From the NCBI GenBank assembly GCA_045106895.1, contig JBGCFM010000126.1, positions 1-10,996 of the forward strand: DNA of 10,996 nt, given 5' to 3'. Positions 1 through 10,996 of this stretch are shown piece by piece. A program made the position numbers and the translations under genes. Below the pieces are notes generated by a model. It had not been told where the DNA came from. It saw only the letters and a list, made by a program, of their open reading frames with translations, and did no database searches. This stretch comes from Polyangiales bacterium. Its GTDB lineage: Bacteria; Myxococcota_A; Polyangia; Polyangiales; Houyiibacteriaceae. Each line of letters begins with the position of its first letter. The first letter of the stretch is position 1.

Positions 1-334
1 CATCGAGCTCGACCAGCCTCTCCTCGTGGGCACACGTCGTCGCTACATCGCGGGGCTGGCGATGCTTGGCGGCGTCGCCGCGGTCGGCGCGGTCGGGTTC
101 TACGAGCTTGCACATCAGTGGGAGTGGCCCGAAGACGAGCCCAGTCGTGCGGTGCGCGGGCGACGCACGGCGATCAGCGTGGCGCTCCTGGGCCCAACTT
201 TGCTCATCACGGGCCTGATACTCTTGGTCCGCGCTCATCGCATGCAGGACGCCGCCGAGGCTCCTGCGTTTGCGCGCTACCAGGCGCTTCGTGAACGGCG
301 CCGGGAAATCCTCCGCGCGACAGCGACACGTTAA
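1..334 (+). CDS. 3' end of a hypothetical membrane protein (partial, start lies upstream of the window)
   Basis: The frame is open from base 2 (IELDQPLLVGTRRR...) to TAA at 332-334. It has two hydrophobic stretches (YIAGLAMLGGVAAVGAVGF; IAISVALLGPTLLITGLILLV region) and is followed immediately by a terminator hairpin. No family recognised. Confidence 0.6.
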   Translation, partial: IELDQPLLVGTRRRYIAGLAMLGGVAAVGAVGFYELAHQWEWPEDEPSRAVRGRRTAISVALLGPTLLITGLILLVRAHRMQDAAEAPAFARYQALRERRREILRATATR

Positions 335-335
335 A

Positions 336-367
336 GAACAAAGCCCGCGTCTCCGCGGGCTTCGTTC
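336..367. terminator. Rho-independent, probably bidirectional terminator between convergent genes
   Basis: AAGCCCGCG (341-349) / CGCGGGCTT (354-362) form a perfect 9-bp stem with a 4-nt loop, extended by GAAC (336-339) / GTTC (364-367). On the minus strand the loop is GAGA (GNRA) followed by TTTGTTCTTT; on the plus strand the stem runs into TTCGTTC. Confidence 0.85.
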
Positions 368-394
368 AGTGTGTAGATAGCGACTTCGGAGGCG

Positions 395-1786
395 CTAGTT
401 CTGAAGTGTGGTCAGGTTGTAGGAAGGCAACGAGTCCGTGTAGTTCGTGAAGGACTCGACGCCTTCCAGCGTCACGCTCACGACCTCTGCATCTTCCCCC
501 GCGGTGTGTCCGACGTGGAACATATCGTCGAACCAAACGCCCTGGCCCATGGAGAAAGCACCTTCGGATTCCCAGAGGGAGGTCGCGGTTCCGGCGGTGA
601 GGTCGACGAGGACGATCTCGTCGCTTGTGCCCGCGCCGAAGTCACCAAGGGCGAGGCCCACGATCTTGTCGGTGTCGACGGCGACGATGCTCCAGACCGC
701 CACGAGCTCGTCTTCGCCGGGCTGCCACATGGCGGTGATGGATCCGACTCCGTCGTCCGAGACGGCGAGGCGGTAGATACCGGAGGTCTCGCGGACGCCC
801 GGTCCGCCAAAGCCCACGGTGGAGTAACCCTTGCAGGCGACCATGATGTCCGTGCCGAAGCGCGCGACCTGGCCGCAGTTGGCGCCACCGGGAAGGTCCA
901 CGGCGGTGACTTCGAGCGTCGTGAGGTTCACAAGCGCGACCTGGCCTGGGCCAAAGCCGCGCGCCGCACCGGCTTGGTCGCCGGGGAGACGGTCGAGTCC
1001 GACGACGAGGGTGTTTTCGTTCGCGAGGACCATGCGGTCGGGGCGGGCGGCGATGGCGACGTCAACGACGGCGTCGCCTTCCATGCCGCTGACGGTTCCG
1101 CCGAACGCGCTCAGGTCGATGCGCATGCCGTTGCGTTCCATCGTCACGGGGTTGAAGCCGATGACATCGGAGCCGGCGTCTTCGGGCTCAGCGCCGGGGG
1201 CCGTGTTCGGATCGTAGCGCGTGACCCATGCGGTGTCCGGGCCCGTGACGGCGACGTCGTGGGGGTTGCCACCGAAGGAGTCCGTGCCGACGTTCAGCTG
1301 TCCGATGACGCCGCCGGACAAGCAGAGGTTCGTCACGACGTTCTTGCCGAAGCGATCGATGATGATGAGCTGGCCCGCCGGGGAAGCCTCCGTAGGAAAG
1401 ACCACGTCGCCGCCGAGGGTGGCGGTGAGCGATGGCGCCGTGGTGCCGCTGGTGATCCAGTCCGCCGCGGTCGTTCCGCCTCGGCTCACGACGGAGACTG
1501 CGGAGCTCGTAAAGTCGGTGCTGATCAAGGCCAACTGGGCGCCCTCGTCGATGGGGCTGAGGATCGCTTCGAGGCCGTCACAAGCGCTCACAACGGGTCC
1601 GGCGTCGGGGCCGCCGTCTACGTCGGGGCCGCCGTCTTCATCAGGGCCGGAGTCACCAGGACCGGCGTCGATGCTCAGGCCGTCGAAGCCGCCGTCCATC
1701 GGGACGCTGGAATCCATGCTCGCGTCGTCGTCGCCACAGGCGACCATGGAGAGAGCCAAAAGAAGAAGAGAAGTTATTCGAAGCAT
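395..1786 (-). CDS. Lipoprotein, predicted YncE/BtuG-like beta-propeller, partner of the cobalamin TonB receptor (463 aa)
   Basis: ATG at 1786-1784 overlaps the upstream TGA (TGATG), so it is preferred to the TTG at 1789. Signal peptide with lipobox (MLRITSLLLLALSMVA-C), acidic DGG/DAG linker, then beta-strand-rich blade-like segments (LIIIDR, NPHDVAV, AWVTRY, RPDRMV, IMVAC). Second gene under a B12 riboswitch. The fold is inferred. Confidence 0.75.
   Translation of the reverse strand: MLRITSLLLLALSMVACGDDDASMDSSVPMDGGFDGLSIDAGPGDSGPDEDGGPDVDGGPDAGPVVSACDGLEAILSPIDEGAQLALISTDFTSSAVSVVSRGGTTAADWITSGTTAPSLTATLGGDVVFPTEASPAGQLIIIDRFGKNVVTNLCLSGGVIGQLNVGTDSFGGNPHDVAVTGPDTAWVTRYDPNTAPGAEPEDAGSDVIGFNPVTMERNGMRIDLSAFGGTVSGMEGDAVVDVAIAARPDRMVLANENTLVVGLDRLPGDQAGAARGFGPGQVALVNLTTLEVTAVDLPGGANCGQVARFGTDIMVACKGYSTVGFGGPGVRETSGIYRLAVSDDGVGSITAMWQPGEDELVAVWSIVAVDTDKIVGLALGDFGAGTSDEIVLVDLTAGTATSLWESEGAFSMGQGVWFDDMFHVGHTAGEDAEVVSVTLEGVESFTNYTDSLPSYNLTTLQN
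1603..1637 (-). repeat. Short tandem repeat (17-nt identical copies, period 18) encoding the DGGP linker
   Basis: CGTCGGGGCCGCCGTCT occurs at 1603-1619 and 1621-1637 and encodes part of ...DSGPDEDGGPDVDGGPDAGP... Confidence 0.8.
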
Positions 1787-3729
1787 CAAAGGTCACTTTC
1801 TATTTGCAGAGTCGCCATCACCTGGCGGCCTGGAAGGGGGTATCCGATAAAGTCCTGCCCACGTTCATCGAGGGCGTCCCGAACGCTCAGGCCAAAGGCG
1901 AGTCCGTTCTGCATTTGAATTTGCCCGGCGAAATCGAGCCAGGTGTTCGCGGGAAGCTCGACGAAGTTCGCCGGGTCCTGAAAGAACGACGAGCGGTGTC
2001 GCAGCTGCACTTCGATGTGCGCGTTTCGTATGTTGCCCAGCGGGCCACTTTGAAGCCGCGCGCGGACACGTCCGCTGAGCGAAGGTCGCCAGTTGAGCTC
2101 CCGCTCGCGGCCGTCGTCGGTGGACAGCCAAGTGCCGTTCGCGTCGAGGACAACATGGCGCGCGAGGGTGAGCCGTGAACCGAACTCGGCTCCGGCGATG
2201 ATCGCTTCATCCACGTTTCGTGCGGCGGCTGTGTACTGGGAAGTGGGGATGAAGCGAATCAGGTCTTCGGCGCGCGTGTGAAAGCCGCGTACTTCAACGC
2301 CGACCTGCGCGAATGCCCCGGCGCTCTGAAGCACGATGCCAGCGTCCAAGGTGCGGCCCGTTTCGGCGCGAAGATCGGGGCTACGAACGACGGCGCCGCG
2401 ATCGCCAAGGAGCTCCTGGAGCGTAGGAAGCCGGCGCCCCCGCGAGGCGCTCGCGCTCACGGAGAGCCAGGAGACCGGCGCTACGAGGAGCCCAATGCGG
2501 TAGCTTGGCTGCGTGCTGGAGCTTGGGACCTGCGTGTCTGGGCCTGTCTCGCTGACGCGCGTTCGTTCGAGACGAATGCTCGGCCGCAGCTCGAGGCGGA
2601 CCGGGCCGAGCGCACCGTGAAGCCGAGCCTCCACACTGCCGAAGCCTGTCCAGCGTTGAACGCTGGGGAGCGAGGGGCCGACGGAGTCCGTGGGCGCGTA
2701 CCCGTCGAGGCGCCCGCCGCCCACGACGGTGATGTCGAGGGCGCGGTGGGGGCGAAGCACGCTCCCGGCGCGAATGAACCCGCTCGTCCATTGGTCCACG
2801 GCTTCTTCACGGCCAAAGCCAATCTCGTTGAAGCGGTCGCTGAACTTTCGCCGGTCGCTTCCCGCGCCGGCGGTGACGAAGAGCTCGTGGGCGCCCAGGT
2901 CTACGTCGTAACGGAGGGCGCCGAAGGTGTGTACGTCGTGGCGCTGCGCGTGCTGCGCGCGCGTGAGACCCGCGCCGGGTTCTCCGCCGAGGCGAGACCC
3001 CGCCATGACGAGCGCGGTGAGTCGACCCTCGTCGAGGTCGCGTTCGAGGAGCGCGATGAGCGCCGTGCGCGTTTGCTGCGCGTTGGCCCTGCGGAGCGTC
3101 CGGTCATCGTCGGTGTTGAACGCGGTGCCGTGGTCGTCCAAATAAGGGTAGTCGTTGTCGCTGCCTTCCAGGGCCAGGCGGGCGCTGAACCTCGTTCGGC
3201 CATGGTCGCGCACAAGGTTTGCGCCGCCGCCAACGCCCCACGTGGAGAACGTGCCTCCGGCAGCAAAAGCGCTCACGCTGGACTCTTGGGCGCGGTGAGG
3301 CTCTAGAACCAAGACCCCGCCGAGCGCCGCCGTGGACAGCTCCGCGGGCGCGCCGCCGCGATACACCCGGAGCGATTCGAACATGTGCGCGGAGAGCAGC
3401 CCGAGATCGAAGGCGCCGCTGTCTGGGCCTCGCAGGGGAATGCCGCCAAGGACGACTTCCGTCTGCGCGAGTTCCGCGCCACGCAGCCGCAAATAGCTCG
3501 CCGCGCCAAGGCCACCGGTCTGGGCGACCTGGGCTCCTGGCACACGCGCGAGGGCCGTATTCAGGTCGTCGCTCTCCTCGATCTCCACGCTGCTGCCGGC
3601 GGCGGTTCGGTCCGCGTCGTCGCTCGCCACCGGCGGCGCTTCGACCTCGGCACGTGCGCCGTACTGCGCATGGGTGCGTCCACTCCAGAGGAGTGCGAGG
3701 ACGGCCAGTAGTGCAGGGAGGTGTTTCAA
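1786..3729 (-). CDS. btuB: TonB-dependent outer membrane receptor, BtuB-like (cobalamin uptake), 647 aa
   Basis: TTG start with signal peptide (MKHLPALLAVLALLWSGRTHA-Q). Plug motif LARVPG...GGLG...LRLRG...VVLGGIPL...LRVYRG...ALGGVLVL; barrel motifs GRRLPTLQEL, PDLRAETGRTLDAG; terminal SVRDALD...GYPLPGR. The substrate is assigned from the cobalamin riboswitch directly upstream. Confidence 0.85.
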   Translation of the reverse strand: MKHLPALLAVLALLWSGRTHAQYGARAEVEAPPVASDDADRTAAGSSVEIEESDDLNTALARVPGAQVAQTGGLGAASYLRLRGAELAQTEVVLGGIPLRGPDSGAFDLGLLSAHMFESLRVYRGGAPAELSTAALGGVLVLEPHRAQESSVSAFAAGGTFSTWGVGGGANLVRDHGRTRFSARLALEGSDNDYPYLDDHGTAFNTDDDRTLRRANAQQTRTALIALLERDLDEGRLTALVMAGSRLGGEPGAGLTRAQHAQRHDVHTFGALRYDVDLGAHELFVTAGAGSDRRKFSDRFNEIGFGREEAVDQWTSGFIRAGSVLRPHRALDITVVGGGRLDGYAPTDSVGPSLPSVQRWTGFGSVEARLHGALGPVRLELRPSIRLERTRVSETGPDTQVPSSSTQPSYRIGLLVAPVSWLSVSASASRGRRLPTLQELLGDRGAVVRSPDLRAETGRTLDAGIVLQSAGAFAQVGVEVRGFHTRAEDLIRFIPTSQYTAAARNVDEAIIAGAEFGSRLTLARHVVLDANGTWLSTDDGRERELNWRPSLSGRVRARLQSGPLGNIRNAHIEVQLRHRSSFFQDPANFVELPANTWLDFAGQIQMQNGLAFGLSVRDALDERGQDFIGYPLPGRQVMATLQIESDL

Positions 3730-3754
3730 GGATGGCGATGGAGGGGCGCCGACC

Positions 3755-3793
3755 GAAGAAACTCCTGGATTGGCACGGACCGATGCCAGGATC
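3755..3793 (-). terminator. Candidate riboswitch-controlled terminator/attenuator hairpin
   Basis: The mRNA reads TCCTGG-catcggtccgtgccaat-CCAGGA-GTTTCTTC (arms 3791-3786 and 3768-3763); an alternative inner pairing TGGCA/TGCCA is possible. The U-tract is imperfect. Confidence 0.45.
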
Positions 3794-3835
3794 GTCTCCA
3801 GCTGCCATCCCCGAGGCAGAGTTCAGAGGTTGATC

Positions 3836-4026
3836 CTGGGTAGGTGTCCGGGCTCGTGGCCATGGTCTTCTCCGCCTTCCCACGCTTTCGCGCAGTGACA
3901 TATTGGAGAGGACATTGGGCCACATACCGTGGCGGGTCCGCGTCGGCGTCACACCGACTTCCCTATTCAAGGCCTGGTTTTCTCTCCAGTGCCCCTGTCT
4001 CCGACTTCGAAAAGTCATCGACCCAG
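3836..4026 (-). ncRNA. Cobalamin (B12) riboswitch aptamer
   Basis: The minus strand shows the consensus blocks in order: AATAGGGAA-gtc-GGTG..CCG (AGGGAA = 3964-3959), GCGGACCCGCCACGGT, GTCACTG (3899-3893), GGGAAGG (3881-3875) and the B12 box GAGCCCGGACACCTACCC (3855-3838). Probable closing helix CTGGGT (4026-4021) / ACCCAG (3841-3836). It lies upstream of a TonB receptor. Confidence 0.93.
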
Positions 4027-4036
4027 TTCAGGCGCC

Positions 4037-4065
4037 ACCCTGCGGCCACGTCATGCCTTGGTCAA
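4037..4065 (-). promoter_or_regulatory. Putative sigma70-type promoter for the riboswitch-btuB transcript
   Basis: TTGACC (4065-4060), 17-nt spacer, CAGGGT (4042-4037). The predicted start near 4030 falls just 5' of the riboswitch closing helix. Confidence 0.45.
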
Positions 4066-4070
4066 GGCAT
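4053..4070. promoter_or_regulatory. Perfect 8-2-8 inverted repeat, candidate operator
   Basis: ATGCCTTG-GT-CAAGGCAT in the divergent intergenic region, centred on the putative -35 box. Confidence 0.5.
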
Positions 4071-4096
4071 TCCCTTGTGACGCATCCTTGGCGACC

Positions 4097-4124
4097 TTGC
4101 AGTCGTCCTCTTGGGTGATAACCT
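4097..4124 (+). promoter_or_regulatory. Putative sigma70-type promoter for the leader ORF/czc operon
   Basis: TTGCAG (4097-4102), 16-nt spacer, extended -10 TG-A-TAACCT (4116-4124). It predicts a start near 4131, upstream of the SD GGAG (4159-4162) and ATG 4168. Confidence 0.45.
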
Positions 4125-4167
4125 TTCCCCTGTGCTGGGGACCCTGAATATCCGATATGGAGCGCGA

Positions 4168-4620
4168 ATGATCGCGCTTGGGGTCCTCGTCCTGTCGGTG
4201 TTTTTCGGGCCCGCTGTGCTCGGCGGTCCGGCCTTCGCAGACGCGGACTGTTGCGCCTCCTGTCACAGCGATGAGCCCGGCTCACAAACCGCGAACTACG
4301 CCAAAAACGTCCACGCGGAGCCGGACGACTGCTGTCCAAGTGCGACGACCAAGCACACTGCGAATGCCAGCGCTTCCTCGCATGGCCACTCGCATGCGAG
4401 TGACCACAGCGATCACAGCGACGACACGGCTCCCGATCATGACTGCCCCGACGACTGTCCGGGCTGCGATCTGGGGTTGAGTTTCGCCGTCACGATGAAC
4501 TCGTCTTTGCGCGTGAACTTTGTGCCTCTGATGTCGGACACCTGTGCTCTGGCTTCGCACGAGACGCCGGCGACGGGCACTTGCGCCGGCATCTATCGAC
4601 CGCCGCGATCTCTCTCCTAA
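4168..4620 (+). CDS. Small exported Cys/His-rich protein, DUF2946/CzcI-like leader ORF with C-terminal RPP motif (150 aa)
   Basis: SD GGAG lies 5 nt before ATG 4168 (preferred to TTG 4111). Hydrophobic signal ending AFA-D; 10 Cys and 10 His (CCASCH, DDCC, HGHSHASDHSDH, CPDDCPGC); ends GIYRPPRSLS. First gene ahead of a metal RND operon. Confidence 0.75.
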   Translation: MIALGVLVLSVFFGPAVLGGPAFADADCCASCHSDEPGSQTANYAKNVHAEPDDCCPSATTKHTANASASSHGHSHASDHSDHSDDTAPDHDCPDDCPGCDLGLSFAVTMNSSLRVNFVPLMSDTCALASHETPATGTCAGIYRPPRSLS

Positions 4621-4718
4621 CCAATTGCGCAGTATTTTGAGTTTGGATAGGAGTCGTCACTCGCTTCGGGCCGCCGTGCCGCGATAGCTCTGAGTGTGCG
4701 CTCCGCAGGGAGTTTGAG

Positions 4719-5939
4719 ATGTTTAGATGGAGCCTCATTGGCTTCCTGTGTGTCGTGTCGTGGCAGCTGCCGGCACGCGCGCAGGACCAAGCAATGGACA
4801 TAACGCTTGAGAGGGCGCTCGCGATGGCGCGCCAAAGCTCGCCCGAAGCCGCGGGCAGGGAGGCGCGCGCTCGTCTCGCTTCGAGTCGTCTCGAGGCGGC
4901 CTCCGTTCGCCCGTTCAACCCACAGATCTCGGGTTCGCTGGGCCCGCGCTTCGGTGAAGCAGGGACGAGGCTCAACGGCTCGGTGCAGATTCGGCAATGG
5001 TTTGAGTTAGGCGGCCAAAGAGGCGACCGCCAAGACATCGCTCGCGCCGGAGTCGAGTCCCAAGAAGCGCGAAGCGCTCGCCGGATGCACCTCGTCGAGC
5101 GTGATGTGAGCCTGGCTTTCTTCCGCGCTTTGTACTGGGAGCAGCGCGTGGAACTATTCGAGGAGAGCCTCCGCGTCGCGAACGCTGTCCTCGCGAGCGC
5201 GAGGAGTCGCCACGAGCTTGGCGACGCCGGCGGGCTGGAGTCGTCCCTCGCGACCATCGCCGCGGCGCGCGCTGACACGGAGATGCAGAGCGCCCGCGTC
5301 TCCTCGCTCCGCGCCCTTGGCGAGTTGAAGGTCCTCCTCGGAGTTCGCGCTGACGTTTCGCTTCGAGTGCGTGGAGACCTTCGAGCTCTCGGCGTGGCGC
5401 CTGTGGAGCCTCGACCTTCCGATGGTGCGGAGCGCGCCGATCTGCGTGCTTTGCGTGCCGAGGTCCGCGGCGCCCGCGCCGAGGCGGAGCTGGGACGCGC
5501 GAGCCGTTGGCCGAACTTCGCCCTCGGCGCTCGCTACGCCAGGGACGAGGCCGACGACGTTGTCCAAGGCATCTTCAGTATCCAGCTGCCCTTCTTCGAC
5601 CGTGGCCAGGGGGAAGTCGCCATCGCCTCCGCGCGCGAAGAGGTGGCCCAACGACAGCTCGAATCGGCGACGATGGCCGCATCCGTGGAGCTGGACACAT
5701 CTCAGCGTGCCGCGCGCGCTCTCTCCCGCGCCGCGCGCCAGTTTGAAGCCACGGGCTTGCCGGCGCTTGCGCGGGCCGAAGAGCTAGCGACGGGAAACTA
5801 CGAAGCCGGCGCGGTTCCCCTCGCGGAGCTTCTCCTCATTCGGCGTGAGCTCCTTCACGCCAGAACAACGTATCTCGACCAGCTCTTTGAAGCCGCAGCG
5901 GCGCAAGCCGAACTCGTCGCCCAAAGAGGTGCGCGATGA
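4719..5939 (+). CDS. czcC: TolC-family outer membrane efflux protein, CzcC-like (406 aa)
   Basis: SD GGGAG at 4708-4712; signal peptide; OEP motifs ITLERALAMARQSSP, NPQIS, IRQWFELGGQRG, RADLRAL, SIQLPFFDRGQG, NYEAGAVPLAELL. Upstream of MFP and RND genes. Confidence 0.88.
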   Translation: MFRWSLIGFLCVVSWQLPARAQDQAMDITLERALAMARQSSPEAAGREARARLASSRLEAASVRPFNPQISGSLGPRFGEAGTRLNGSVQIRQWFELGGQRGDRQDIARAGVESQEARSARRMHLVERDVSLAFFRALYWEQRVELFEESLRVANAVLASARSRHELGDAGGLESSLATIAAARADTEMQSARVSSLRALGELKVLLGVRADVSLRVRGDLRALGVAPVEPRPSDGAERADLRALRAEVRGARAEAELGRASRWPNFALGARYARDEADDVVQGIFSIQLPFFDRGQGEVAIASAREEVAQRQLESATMAASVELDTSQRAARALSRAARQFEATGLPALARAEELATGNYEAGAVPLAELLLIRRELLHARTTYLDQLFEAAAAQAELVAQRGAR

Positions 5940-6337
5940 CTACGAATACTGAATCCAGAACGAAAGAATCACTCATGTACTTTGCTCGACTCCGCTGTGC
6001 CCTTCGAGTCTCTTCACTTCTGACCTTGGCGCTCCTCGCCGCCTGCGAGGAAGTCCCAGAGCCAACAGAACAAACCGTGAATGCGGAAGAGGGCGTGCAA
6101 ACGAGCGCCGTCGAACACGCACCTGCCGGCGCCGTCCCGGGCTCTCACGAAGATTGGTGCGGAGGCCACGGCGTCCCGGAGTCTTTGTGCACGCGTTGCA
6201 ACCCGAGGCTCATCGGTGCGTTCCAGGCCACGGGTGATTGGTGCCCCGAGCACAACTTGCCGGAATCGCAGTGCACCATCTGCAACCCAGACCTGGTCAT
6301 CGAGCGTCCGCCCCGCACAAACGAAGCAGCCCCATGA
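5936..6337 (+). CDS. Small lipoprotein carrying one pair of C-x2-H-x6-C-x2-C motifs (putative periplasmic metal-binding accessory protein)
   Basis: ATGA overlaps at both ends (5936-5939, 6334-6337); alternative start ATG 5975. Lipobox LLAA-C (Cys at 6044). Contains DWCGGHGVPESLCTRCNP-RLIGAFQATG-DWCPEHNLPESQCTICNP at 6152-6289. Confidence 0.85.
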   Translation: MTTNTESRTKESLMYFARLRCALRVSSLLTLALLAACEEVPEPTEQTVNAEEGVQTSAVEHAPAGAVPGSHEDWCGGHGVPESLCTRCNPRLIGAFQATGDWCPEHNLPESQCTICNPDLVIERPPRTNEAAP

Positions 6338-8087
6338 AGCGCGACCGCGCTCAGCGCTATTCTAACTTCGCGCGCGTGCTCTTCCTGGCTTTGGCGCTCT
6401 GCGGCGCATGCGAAGAGCCCGTGCAGCCCGACGTGGAAGCCGCCGCTGCGGTGGAAGCCGCTGCGGCAGCATCTCACGCCGCCGAGCCACGCGCCGACGG
6501 CGCGTGCGAACACCACTTGCCAGCGGGGCTCTGTCCAAAGTGCGAGCCGTCTTTGGCGGCGGTCTACCAAGCCCAAGGAGATTGGTGTGACGAGCACGGT
6601 TTTCCGGAGTCGTTCTGTCCCGTGTGCAATCCGGGCGCCGTGATCCCGGCAGTGGACGCGCCCGCGCCTTCGGGTGGAACCACGCCAAGTGACTGGTGCG
6701 GAGGCCACGCCCTGCCCGAGTCCCAGTGCACCAAGTGCAACCCTTCGCTCATTCCGCGCTTCCGCGCCGCCGGCGACTACTGCGAAGAACACGGCTTCCC
6801 GGAATCCGTGTGTCCTGTGTGTAATCCTCAAACGCCGCCGGCTGGACCCGTCTCCGATTGGTGCGTCGAACATGGTCTTCCGGAGTCCAGCTGCACCTTG
6901 TGCAACCCCTCGCTCACTCCGCGCTTTGTGGCCGCCGGAGACTACTGCGAGGAGCACGGTTTCCCCGAGTCTTTGTGTCCCGTCTGCAATCCCCAAGCGG
7001 CGCCTCCTGGCGCGGAGCGAGCGTCCATCGAAGCGCGCGTCGTTCGCTTTCGCACGCCGGACATTGAATCGTCCGCCGGCATCGACACCGTCGTGGCCGT
7101 CGCCGCCGAAGCGTCGGCTTCCATCGAATGTACCGGACGCATCGCCTTTCACGGTGACCGCATTGCGGAAGTTCGGGCCATCGTCCCCGGCATCGTTCGG
7201 GGTGTTCGCGTCGCTCTTGGCGAGGAGGTCGAAGCCGGCGCTCGACTCTTCGACTTGGAAAGCACGCAGGTCGGCCAGACCCAAGGGATCCTCGTTGCTG
7301 CGCGAGAGCGCGTTCGAGCGGCGGAGCTACATCTCGCACGGCAACGTGAGCTACAAGGGAGAGATATCGCCTCGGCGAGACAGGTAGAGATCGCCGAACA
7401 AGAACTGAGCGTAGCTCAAGCCGAAGCGCGAACAGCCACGGCGACATTGCGGATGGCTGGCGCTGCGCGTTCGGGTTCGTCCGGTCGCTACTCTCTGACT
7501 GCGCCCATTGCCGGGACCGTCGTGCGACGGCCGGCGGTCATCGGGCGTTTGGCAACGGAGAGCGAATCCCTCGCGACCATCGCCGACACAAGCGTCATGT
7601 GGGTGATGTGTGACATCCCTGAAGCCGCCGCATCGCGCATCGCGCTCGGCCAGCGCGTCGTCGTGAACGTGGATGGTCAAGGAAGCGAGACCGTGGGCGA
7701 GATCACCTGGGTATCGACGGAAGTCGACCCTCGTTCACGAACCGTCACGACACGCGCCGAGTTGCCCAACCCCGATGGAACGTTGCGCGCAAACCAGTTC
7801 GCCCAAGCGCGGGTGCAAACCGGCGCGCCGAGGAACGCTGTGGCCGTTCCTCGTAGCGCCGTTCAGCGGGTAGATCACCTGGAGGTCGTCTTCGTCCGCG
7901 TCTCGCCCGGCGTCTTTGAGCCACGCGTCGTCGAGCGTCACGGTGGCGGCGAATCCGTACAGGTGGTGGGACGCGTTCGCGCCGGCGATTCCGTGGTCAC
8001 GACCGGCGCGGTGTTGCTTCGAACGGAGATCATGCCTGGCAGCATCGGGGCTGGCTGCTGCGAAGTAGAGACCGGAAGCGCGGACTG

Positions 8088-8088
<1 letters not shown>
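6334..8088 (+). CDS. czcB: RND periplasmic adaptor (membrane fusion protein), CzcB-like, with N-terminal Cys/His repeat array (584 aa)
   Basis: ATG 6334 overlaps the upstream stop (the ORF-track start at 6238 is unlikely). N-terminal anchor/possible lipobox LALALCGA-C. MFP motifs GRIAF..EVRAIVPGIVRGVRVALGEEVEAGARL, LTAPIAGTV, IADTSVMWV, VDPRSRTVTTRAELPNPDGTLRANQF, VAVPRSAVQ, GDSVVTTGAVLL. Confidence 0.9.
6499..6993 (+). repeat. Intragenic repeat array: three paired Cys/His modules (six motifs)
   Basis: Module A 6499-6633, module B 6691-6828, module C 6856-6993 (B and C are 165 nt apart). Consensus D[WY]C-x2-H-x-[FL]PES-x-C-x2-CNP; the first motif is one residue shorter (CEHHLPAGLCPKCEP). Confidence 0.92.

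Positions 8089-10996
<2,908 letters not shown>

Follow-up and report, generated by a model that had tools for sequence, protein, structure and literature searches.

A candidate metal-sensing leader peptide ahead of a heavy-metal efflux operon in Myxococcota

Metal efflux pumps are usually held to be induced by two-component systems or by MerR/ArsR-type regulators. Work on two bacterial proteins, CutF and CruR, has shown that a nascent exported peptide can do such a regulatory job. Here we examine a small open reading frame (ORF) that lies directly ahead of a heavy-metal efflux operon in a Polyangiales bacterium (GenBank assembly GCA_045106895.1, contig JBGCFM010000126.1, positions 1 to 10,996), and compare it with these systems. 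We refer to the whole 10,996-nucleotide (nt) stretch as the window, and to the small ORF and its product as the leader.

CutF of Rhodobacter capsulatus combines a Sec signal, two upstream cysteines, a CxxxC motif and a C-terminal PPP (PMC9973294). Periplasmic copper prolongs the CutF stall, upon which a stem-loop over the cutO Shine-Dalgarno (SD) sequence melts (PMC9973294; bioRxiv 10.1101/2025.02.05.636593). The same work surveyed 5,334 CutF-like proteins, a class defined by a length below 150 aa, PP within the last 15 residues, a signal peptide and a same-strand neighbour less than 1000 nt away. Outer-membrane factors of resistance-nodulation-division (RND) pumps were the commonest downstream neighbour, and SilD, CusD, CopL and CzcI were labelled as relatives (PMC9973294). 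In Bordetella pertussis, the 145-aa DUF2946 protein CruR (Bp2923) carries CXXC at residues 90-93 and RAPP at 139-142, 3 residues from its end, and the distance from one motif to the other is kept in more than 2000 members of the DUF2946 family. Once RAPP, CXXC or the spacing is changed, copper no longer controls the TonB-dependent transporter encoded downstream; the stall is one that Cu relieves (PMC9426467). In the PURE system CruR stalls with the P and A sites occupied by its two Pro codons (PMC12992588). Related in outline are the RAPP-type arrest peptides (ApdA, ApdP and ApcA, and SecM with RAGP), small exported proteins upstream of their target that carry a C-terminal Arg and Pro-Pro close to the stop, as the leader does, and that monitor Sec/YidC activity rather than metals. 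They require a conserved N-terminal-adjacent stretch of ~15 residues in the tunnel (PMC12992588; PMC10951233).

The leader follows much the same plan. Like CutF, it is a small, apparently Sec-exported peptide with two upstream cysteines, a Cys motif and, not far from its stop codon, a proline motif at the C-terminus, and it stands directly upstream of a metal-detoxification gene; the metal-ON polarity of CutF is also the one that we infer here. Measured against the rule for CutF-like proteins, PP lies 5-6 residues from the end, the same-strand czcC gene is 98 nt away, the signal peptide is recognized by eye, and the length of 150 aa (from ATG) or 162 aa (from GTG) falls at or just above the limit. 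Compared by published features, CutF has CxxxC and PPP where the leader family has C-x3-C-x2-C and [FY]RPPR, its target is a multicopper oxidase rather than a heavy-metal efflux (HME)-RND pump, and it possesses an SD-shielding stem-loop for which folding found no significant counterpart at the leader locus. The layout of CruR is nearly superimposable on that of the window leader (150 aa, CxxC at 97-100, RPP at 144-146, 4 residues from the end), and both families hold the distance from the cysteines to the proline motif constant within a few residues. The core is RAPP in CruR and xRPPR in the leader, and 48 residues separate the Cys from the first Pro in CruR against 45 in the leader. Unlike the proposed leader, CruR as published controls a TonB-dependent importer via Rho, has a stall that is relieved by Cu, and can dispense with its signal peptide. 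Taking these comparisons together with the conservation described below, we lean towards the view that the leader is a cis-acting, metal-sensing leader peptide of an operon comprising czcC, a small lipoprotein gene, czcB and czcA. A pause at RPP would be set by metal, the RNA beyond the stop codon would be remodelled, and the pump would be expressed.

On the comparative evidence, the leader ORF is a real, conserved gene. A word-indexed search with the leader protein returned 5 close relatives, phmmer against 1.84 billion cluster representatives gave 20 proteins at E ≤ 1e-3, and a profile of 24 sequences recovered 40 proteins at E ≤ 1e-27 from a set of 5.8 billion proteins. The family set holds 53 proteins, and the 50-sequence alignment used below contains sequences 26-81% identical to the window protein. 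Among the collected homologues the only name is 'hypothetical protein', and none carries a precomputed Pfam domain. Across a range of 24-81% identity, what these proteins conserve, at constant spacing, is confined to an export signal, Cys motifs and the [IV][FY]RPPR tail, which is the outcome that a first-pass annotation, made from the letters of the window, had proposed to look for in an alignment of orthologues. RPP, whose loss among homologues would have spoken against an arrest role, is present in 53 of 53 proteins, always inside [FY]RPP[RK]. The C-x3-C-x2-C motif and the signal peptide are likewise kept by 53 of 53 (that of the window being judged by eye). In the window protein 44 residues separate C100 from R144, and the same distance from last Cys to Arg is found in 45 of the 53 proteins (range 41-46). 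In 49 of 53 the protein ends four residues past RPP, and the remaining four proteins stop 2-3 residues past it, with variable tails. The invariant columns of the 50-sequence alignment are C32, C97, C100, R144, P145 and P146, with C28, C93, G137 and R147 among the nearly invariant ones. The coordinates given by the first-pass annotation, with CPDDCPGC at 4444-4467, RPP at 4597-4605 four codons before the stop, and the 44 residues between Cys and Arg, all proved right on re-measurement; the four codons between RPP and the stop read R-S-L-S.

Much of the protein between these anchors varies. The linker upstream of the Cys motif ranges from 23 to 89 residues across the family and is rich in acidic residues (D+E 32%, H 7.7%), the first and second Cys clusters lie 37-77 residues apart, and individual proteins contain up to 14 Cys. 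By contrast, the 43-residue spacer between the Cys motif and RPP is poorly conserved in sequence through its middle and constant in length. It opens with a moderately hydrophobic stretch (mean Kyte-Doolittle 1.9 over the best 12-residue window in the 45 proteins with a 43-residue spacer) and closes with a semi-conserved LAPxDxPAxGxxxG[VI][FY]. The N-terminus, MIALGVLVLSVFFGPAVLGGPAFA followed by DADCC, resembles a signal peptide on inspection, and G14, P15 and L18 within this segment are nearly invariant in the 50-sequence alignment. The His-rich tract noted in the first-pass annotation is certainly present in the window protein, which has 10 His, but numbers range from 0 to 10 across the family and the tract is a feature of this locus and no family trait. 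AlphaFold2 supplied with 50 sequences predicted no fold (mean predicted local distance difference test score, pLDDT, 56; predicted template modelling score, pTM, 0.19). The only helices were one over signal-peptide residues 2-13 and a four-residue turn at 105-108; the last ten residues reached pLDDT 80 and the rest was largely disordered.

The resemblance of this family to named ones is faint. DUF2946 was the sole recurring weak Pfam match, found in 5 of 24 and 9 of 47 members tested and sub-threshold in every case, with alignments that are co-linear over profile positions 2-110 of 117; the window protein itself has no DUF2946 (PF11162) match at E ≤ 0.1 or at E ≤ 10. The profile search of the 5.8-billion-protein set brought up only the same unnamed family and no Pfam-annotated bridge to DUF2946. 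In a language-model Atlas the nearest cluster was 'DUF2946 domain-containing' at 0.95, a score that about 1 in 100 shuffled queries also attain, followed by DUF2946, CzcI and DUF6660 clusters at 0.93. When the hallmarks of DUF2946 leaders are taken individually, the CXXC motif is there (C97-x2-C100, invariant) and so is a constant Cys-Pro spacing, kept to within 1-2 residues in DUF2946, with 43 intervening residues in 45 of 53 leader proteins against 45 in CruR, 2-3 shorter; the RAPP ~3 residues from the end is replaced by [FY]RPP[RK] and occurs in none of the 53. The leader, read in the first-pass annotation as a variant of DUF2946-type ORFs, is no Pfam DUF2946 member: no protein of the 53 attains the DUF2946 gathering score. 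CzcI of Cupriavidus metallidurans (PF28244) is, like the leader, a small ORF upstream of czcCBA. It has been suggested to be a metal-sensing regulator and has no proline motif at its C-terminus (PMC9973294). None of the 53 proteins gave a Pfam CzcI match at E ≤ 10, and the Atlas neighbour at 0.93 is the only link. SilD on plasmid pMOL30 of C. metallidurans, 131 aa and encoded 72 nt upstream of a TolC-family gene, resembles the leader in having an N-terminal hydrophobic segment, CxxxC and RPPPRP, with 47 residues from last Cys to Arg; it ends 10 residues past its Pro motif, against 4 in the leader, and has no Pfam match. The published survey marks SilD as a CutF-like node (PMC9973294), and with CusD it makes up the small ORFs that precede silCBA and cusCBAF in C. 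metallidurans. Scans of Pfam and NCBIfam placed the leader ORF in no family and gave it no CusF- or CopK-type match, and an anti-sigma reading of C-x3-C-x2-C was dropped because the same scans gave no zf-HC2 match.

The genomic setting of the leader is conserved on one side only. A scan of GTDB genomes with an 8-sequence alignment gave seven candidate loci (L001-L007), of which four are true relatives (L001-L004), all in Myxococcota: two Polyangiales metagenome-assembled genomes (MAGs), Paraliomyxa miuraensis and one Myxococcales MAG. The other three (L005-L007, from Methanoregula, Woeseiaceae and Patescibacteria) matched the CPxDCPxC pattern only, do not encode the leader ORF, and were discarded. 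In the window and in all four related loci the leader is directly upstream of pump genes. The next gene encodes an outer-membrane efflux protein in the window and L001-L003, and in L004 the leader is followed by a 41-codon outer-membrane-factor remnant (3438-3560) and then the adaptor. The upstream genes differ between loci (cytochrome-c-peroxidase-like or Ser/Thr kinase, and a TonB-dependent receptor in the window) and the downstream ones are kept; therefore the conserved unit is the leader plus the pump. Downstream of the window leader an outer-membrane factor, adaptor and permease follow on one strand, as expected of an HME-RND operon. In agreement with the first-pass annotation, which had seen no transcriptional regulator gene, the scanned ORFs gave no regulator-type match in Pfam or NCBIfam, in a window that ends inside the RND gene.

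These features suggest how the leader could work. As in CutF, metal would be sensed by an exported and mostly unstructured peptide still bound to the ribosome. The ribosome would pause with the Pro-Pro codons, or possibly Pro-Pro and the following Arg codon, at its centre. During this pause the C-x3-C-x2-C motif would be ~45 residues from the peptidyl-transferase centre, freshly out of the tunnel and in the translocon, and the first Cys cluster would already be beyond the cytoplasm. With metal absent, export, folding or disulfide formation would pull on the chain and release the pause, and a thiophilic metal on the cysteines (candidates being Zn, Cd, Co and Cu) would lengthen it. The paused ribosome would cover the last codons and the stop codon, which make up the 5' arm of a predicted hairpin, and a purine-rich motif 14-21 nt downstream would be freed. 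The intergenic RNA would rearrange and czcC become translatable, in the window through a four-segment switch like that of an erm leader; in L004 motif and ribosome-binding region overlap directly. The net effect would be that metal switches the pump on.

The RNA between leader and czcC offers some material for such a switch. The motif GTYYRGRTMGG occurs once in the window, where 0.14 occurrences are expected by chance, and a single copy stands at the corresponding position of each of L001-L004; the pattern is post hoc, derived from the same five sequences, and is absent from the 6 other loci compared. In every locus the motif is paired, in the local minimum free energy (MFE) fold, with the stop codon and the final sense codons, and the RNAalifold consensus is a hairpin of 12 pairs, 2 of them with compensatory change. 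The free RNA of the window is predicted to form two hairpins, one pairing 4614-4624 with 4642-4653 and the other pairing 4700-4704 with the SD at 4708-4712. When the stretch that a ribosome would cover with Pro146 in its P site is left out, AGGAG at 4649-4653 pairs instead with the anti-SD at 4700-4704, and the modelled probability that the AUG is unpaired rises from 0.11 to 0.84. As modelled, the rearrangement in the window follows erm-leader-like logic. An earlier variant of the folding that included upstream coding RNA was inconsistent between loci, and we regard the stop-codon hairpin and the conserved post-stop motif as tentative leads. A stem formed by the Arg-Pro codons (CGACCY with a downstream RGGUCG) was also considered; it is compatible with L002-L004, where there is one compensatory change, but is disrupted in L001 and the window, and it gave way to the stop-codon hairpin.

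A number of observations weigh against a stalling leader with an RNA switch. The RNA evidence is uneven: z scores for the stop-codon hairpin are -1.4 in the window and -0.4, -2.3, -2.2 and +0.2 in the related loci, the RNAalifold covariation term is unfavourable (+1.28), in the window and in L001 alike 5 of the 12 hairpin pairs are non-standard, and two further pairs are broken or gapped in 2 of the 5 sequences. The fold of 4585-4745 is no stabler than its shuffles (z -0.51), and the modelled stall makes the start of czcC more accessible in no more than 3 of the 5 loci (window, L002 and L004; not L001 or L003). The gaps between leader and pump, 98 nt in the window and 121, 110, 243 and 32 nt in L001-L004, are awkward for a single RNA mechanism. 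At the protein level, stalling at RPP is something that we infer at this locus, and a lone Pro-Pro is normally relieved by elongation factor P (EF-P). Published strong-arrest cores are R-[AG]-P-P, RAPG, RAGP, or RxPP with x being G, A, S or P (PMC12992588), and the leader core, with Arg immediately before Pro-Pro and then an invariant Arg/Lys, falls outside this RAPP/RGPP/RxPP definition. The best DUF2946 score is 17.8 bits (E 0.0059) against a gathering cut-off of 23.7, and SilD had to be given up as a bridge to the leader family, there being no detectable homology (hhalign probability 0.3%). Because of these last two results, the analogy with CutF and CruR rests on design and not on ancestry. 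Retrieval by similarity may also favour homologues that keep the motifs, and the conserved first Cys cluster and the acidic linker would suit a mature periplasmic metal binder too.

That last point leads to a different account, which we judge somewhat unlikely, in which the leader is an ordinary exported or membrane-associated metal binder (a chaperone, buffer or pump accessory like CzcI, CusF or SilE) that acts in trans after release. Here [FY]RPPRSL would be a docking or degradation tag, recognized for example by a periplasmic PDZ protease or serving as a pump ligand, and the fixed spacing would reflect a metal-dependent fold. The signal peptide, the abundance of Cys, the acidic/His linker and the two conserved Cys clusters all suit such a protein, as do its place in one operon with pump genes that themselves bear Cys/His repeats and the want of significant RNA structure; the tails often end in S-L-[TSVI], which resembles a class I PDZ ligand. 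Against this account stand the absence of any predicted fold from 50 aligned sequences and a spacer that is constant in length and variable in sequence. It is R-P-P that is conserved most strongly and not the terminus, since 4 of 53 proteins end 2-3 residues after RPP with varying tails. A non-coding motif is also retained right after the stop, and the closest characterized designs, CutF and CruR, are undetected as proteins and act only in cis (PMC9973294, PMC9426467).

The same nascent-chain sensor could instead be read out transcriptionally, with a stalled ribosome blocking Rho or an attenuator so that metal permits czcCBA transcription. Rho-dependent control has been shown for CruR (PMC9426467), the long and variable gaps in the window and L001-L003 fit polarity better than direct melting of a ribosome-binding site, and the start region is predicted to be unmasked at some loci and not at others. 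Against this, the intergenic regions are G-rich and not C-rich in 4 of 5 loci (C 0.23-0.34 versus G 0.34-0.37), unlike Rho utilization (rut) sites, the L004 gap is only 32 nt, and a scan of 3650-4800 found no sigma-70-like promoter and no intrinsic terminator in the gap between the leader ORF and czcC. Base composition and the terminator scan give no support for a Rho or attenuator read-out, which we consider quite unlikely. Finally, spurious overlapping ORFs are many in this 65% GC window, which speaks for a chance ORF or mis-called frame in GC-rich DNA; yet a family of 53 homologues down to ~25% identity with conserved motifs and stop position, and a third-position GC content (GC3) of 0.74 against 0.77 in neighbouring genes, make an accident vanishingly improbable.

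Returning to the reading that we favour, of a metal-sensing leader acting in cis, in which we follow the mechanism put forward in the first-pass annotation, the leader family is an addition from Myxococcota, invisible to Pfam, to a class that has already been described, and introduces no new regulatory principle. The CutF-like class is a design shared by families between which sequence reveals no common ancestry, and the leader family is one more of them. In particular, control of an efflux pump with a polarity opposite to that of CruR, put forward in the first-pass annotation as a variant, had precedents, since CutF is metal-ON and RND outer-membrane factors head the list of neighbours in the published survey (PMC9973294). 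Pump-linked leaders are the most numerous in that class, yet in the CutF and CruR reports they are described bioinformatically only, and Myxococcota are absent from the main text of the survey (PMC9973294). A literature search on DUF2946 gave no myxobacterial title among the matches listed. The leader family is a sharply defined test case, with six invariant residues, a ruler of 44 residues, a stop at a fixed position and, after it, a conserved motif, in a phylum outside earlier work. It allows one to ask directly whether the ruler equals the length of tunnel plus translocon, whether xRPPR is a new arrest core that metal can tune, and to which metal it responds. Annotators should mark 'hypothetical' Cys-rich mini-genes that precede Myxococcota czc/cus operons as candidate regulatory leaders. 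A more ambitious version, which we hold to be rather unlikely, would make this a Myxococcota-restricted sensor family, maybe independent of DUF2946, with a new arrest core (Arg-Pro-Pro plus an obligatory incoming Arg/Lys) and a 44-residue ruler, gating a divalent-metal HME-RND pump via an erm-like switch composed of a stop-codon arm, a decoy SD, an anti-SD and the czcC SD. Were this so, no RND efflux pump would have been shown before it to be turned on by ribosome stalling under transmembrane control.

Table 1. Features of the leader locus and the pump operon, in window coordinates.
Feature	Coordinates	Strand	Basis or remark
Leader ORF	ATG 4168 to TAA 4618-4620	+	150 aa; ORF translation
Leader ORF with alternative in-frame start GTG 4132	4132..4620	+	162 aa; family N-termini
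Signal-peptide-like hydrophobic segment ending AFA, residues 1-24	4168..4239	+	judged by eye from sequence
First Cys cluster C28, C29, C32; family consensus CGxSCPCDE	4249..4263	+	C32 invariant, C28 nearly so
Variable acidic linker with His and Cys	4264..4443	+	length variation; pLDDT <50
C-x3-C-x2-C motif CPDDCPGC (C93, C97, C100)	4444..4467	+	likely metal site
Moderately hydrophobic segment right after CxxC	4471..4506	+	hydropathy of spacer
Candidate arrest segment LAxxxxPAxGxxxG[IV][FY], then R144-P145-P146-R147	4549..4608	+	conservation
Predicted hairpin; 5' arm, last codons and stop; 3' arm, conserved motif including AGGAG 4649-4653	4614..4653	+	MFE, RNAalifold
Conserved non-coding motif GTYYRGRTMGG	4641..4651	+	starts 14-21 nt past stop
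czcC ribosome-binding region: hairpin GCUCC/GGGAG(U), SD GGGAG 4708-4712, ATG 4719	4700..4721	+	sequence, MFE folds
Outer-membrane factor, CzcC/TolC-like	4719..5939	+	Pfam OEP E 2e-29; best NCBIfam, IhpA, below cut-off
Small ORF with lipoprotein-like N-terminus and two C-x2-H-x2-P-x3-C-x2-C-N-P repeats	5936..6337	+	translation
CzcB-type periplasmic adaptor with six N-terminal Cys/His repeats	6331..8088	+	HlyD_D23 E 7.8e-36; TIGR01730 above cut-off
CusA/CzcA-family heavy-metal RND permease, runs off window end	8088..10994	+	TIGR00914 1070.6 bits vs 701 cut-off; Pfam ACR_tran

The start of the leader ORF may lie at GTG 4132 rather than at ATG 4168, because the N-termini of the family (in the 24- and 50-sequence alignments) reach ~12 residues beyond M1 and carry Arg; the reading from the GTG begins MLGTLNIRYGAR. 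A GGAG at 4159-4162, 5 nt ahead of ATG 4168, speaks for the ATG, and the motif spacings are independent of the choice. Minor codons bunch around the proline motif, where 4594-4611 reads TAT CGA CCG CCG CGA TCT. In the large genes of the window CGA accounts for 13% of Arg, TAT for 17.5% of Tyr, TTT for 28% of Phe and TCT for 5% of Ser. The Arg of RPP is encoded by CGA in 4 of 5 loci and by CGT in one, the five loci not being independent samples. Slow decoding or RNA pairing could be under selection at this cluster.

Within the operon, the adaptor repeats C-x2-H-x2-P-x3-C-x2-C-[NE]-P occur six times between 6331 and ~7000 (+), and two more are found in the small ORF between czcC and czcB, which matches no Pfam or NCBIfam family at cut-off. 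These repeats are possibly metal-capturing modules that feed the pump. The closest NCBIfam neighbours of the pump are the divalent-metal systems IhpA, IhpB and CzcB/NccB, all below their cut-offs. In the fourth transmembrane region of the permease, residues ~395-412 (window ~9280-9330, +) read AIDFGLVVDSSVIMVEN; we take a DFG...D...EN pattern to be a mark of divalent-cation HME-RND pumps rather than Cus-type Cu/Ag pumps. In L004, from a Polyangiales MAG, the outer-membrane-factor remnant consists of the N-terminal signal joined to C-terminal residues, and because the gene has shrunk the post-stop motif comes to stand directly ahead of the remnant's start codon. The 243-nt gap of L003 (3349-3591) holds two copies of a ~45-nt repeat (GGACCGGAWCCGGATTGAGCCGAGGCTCTAACCGRTCGGCATT) and looks like the site of an inserted repeat element. 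Searching plasmids with CzcC by tblastn gave 8 Pseudomonas records. The two that were examined, H2 and H6, have no annotated leader; next to the pump genes H2 carries a two-component response regulator, and H6 has both a sensor kinase and a response regulator.

On the other side of the leader, 3822-4012 (-) is a cobalamin riboswitch of full length (RF00174, 83 bits, E 9e-20), upstream of the divergent TonB-dependent receptor gene at 1789-3729 (-). With its partial BtuB-like matches, the receptor probably imports B12 and has nothing to do with the metal leader. Downstream of it, 398-1789 (-) encodes a protein of 464 aa that begins like a lipoprotein, contains an acidic Gly/Asp-rich region and has no Pfam or NCBIfam match. 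One homologue of the leader, P0006 (250 aa), has a 100-residue N-terminal extension that matches the window ORF 3844-4080 (+), which runs antisense through the riboswitch; the extension is almost certainly an ORF-calling artefact over conserved non-coding DNA.

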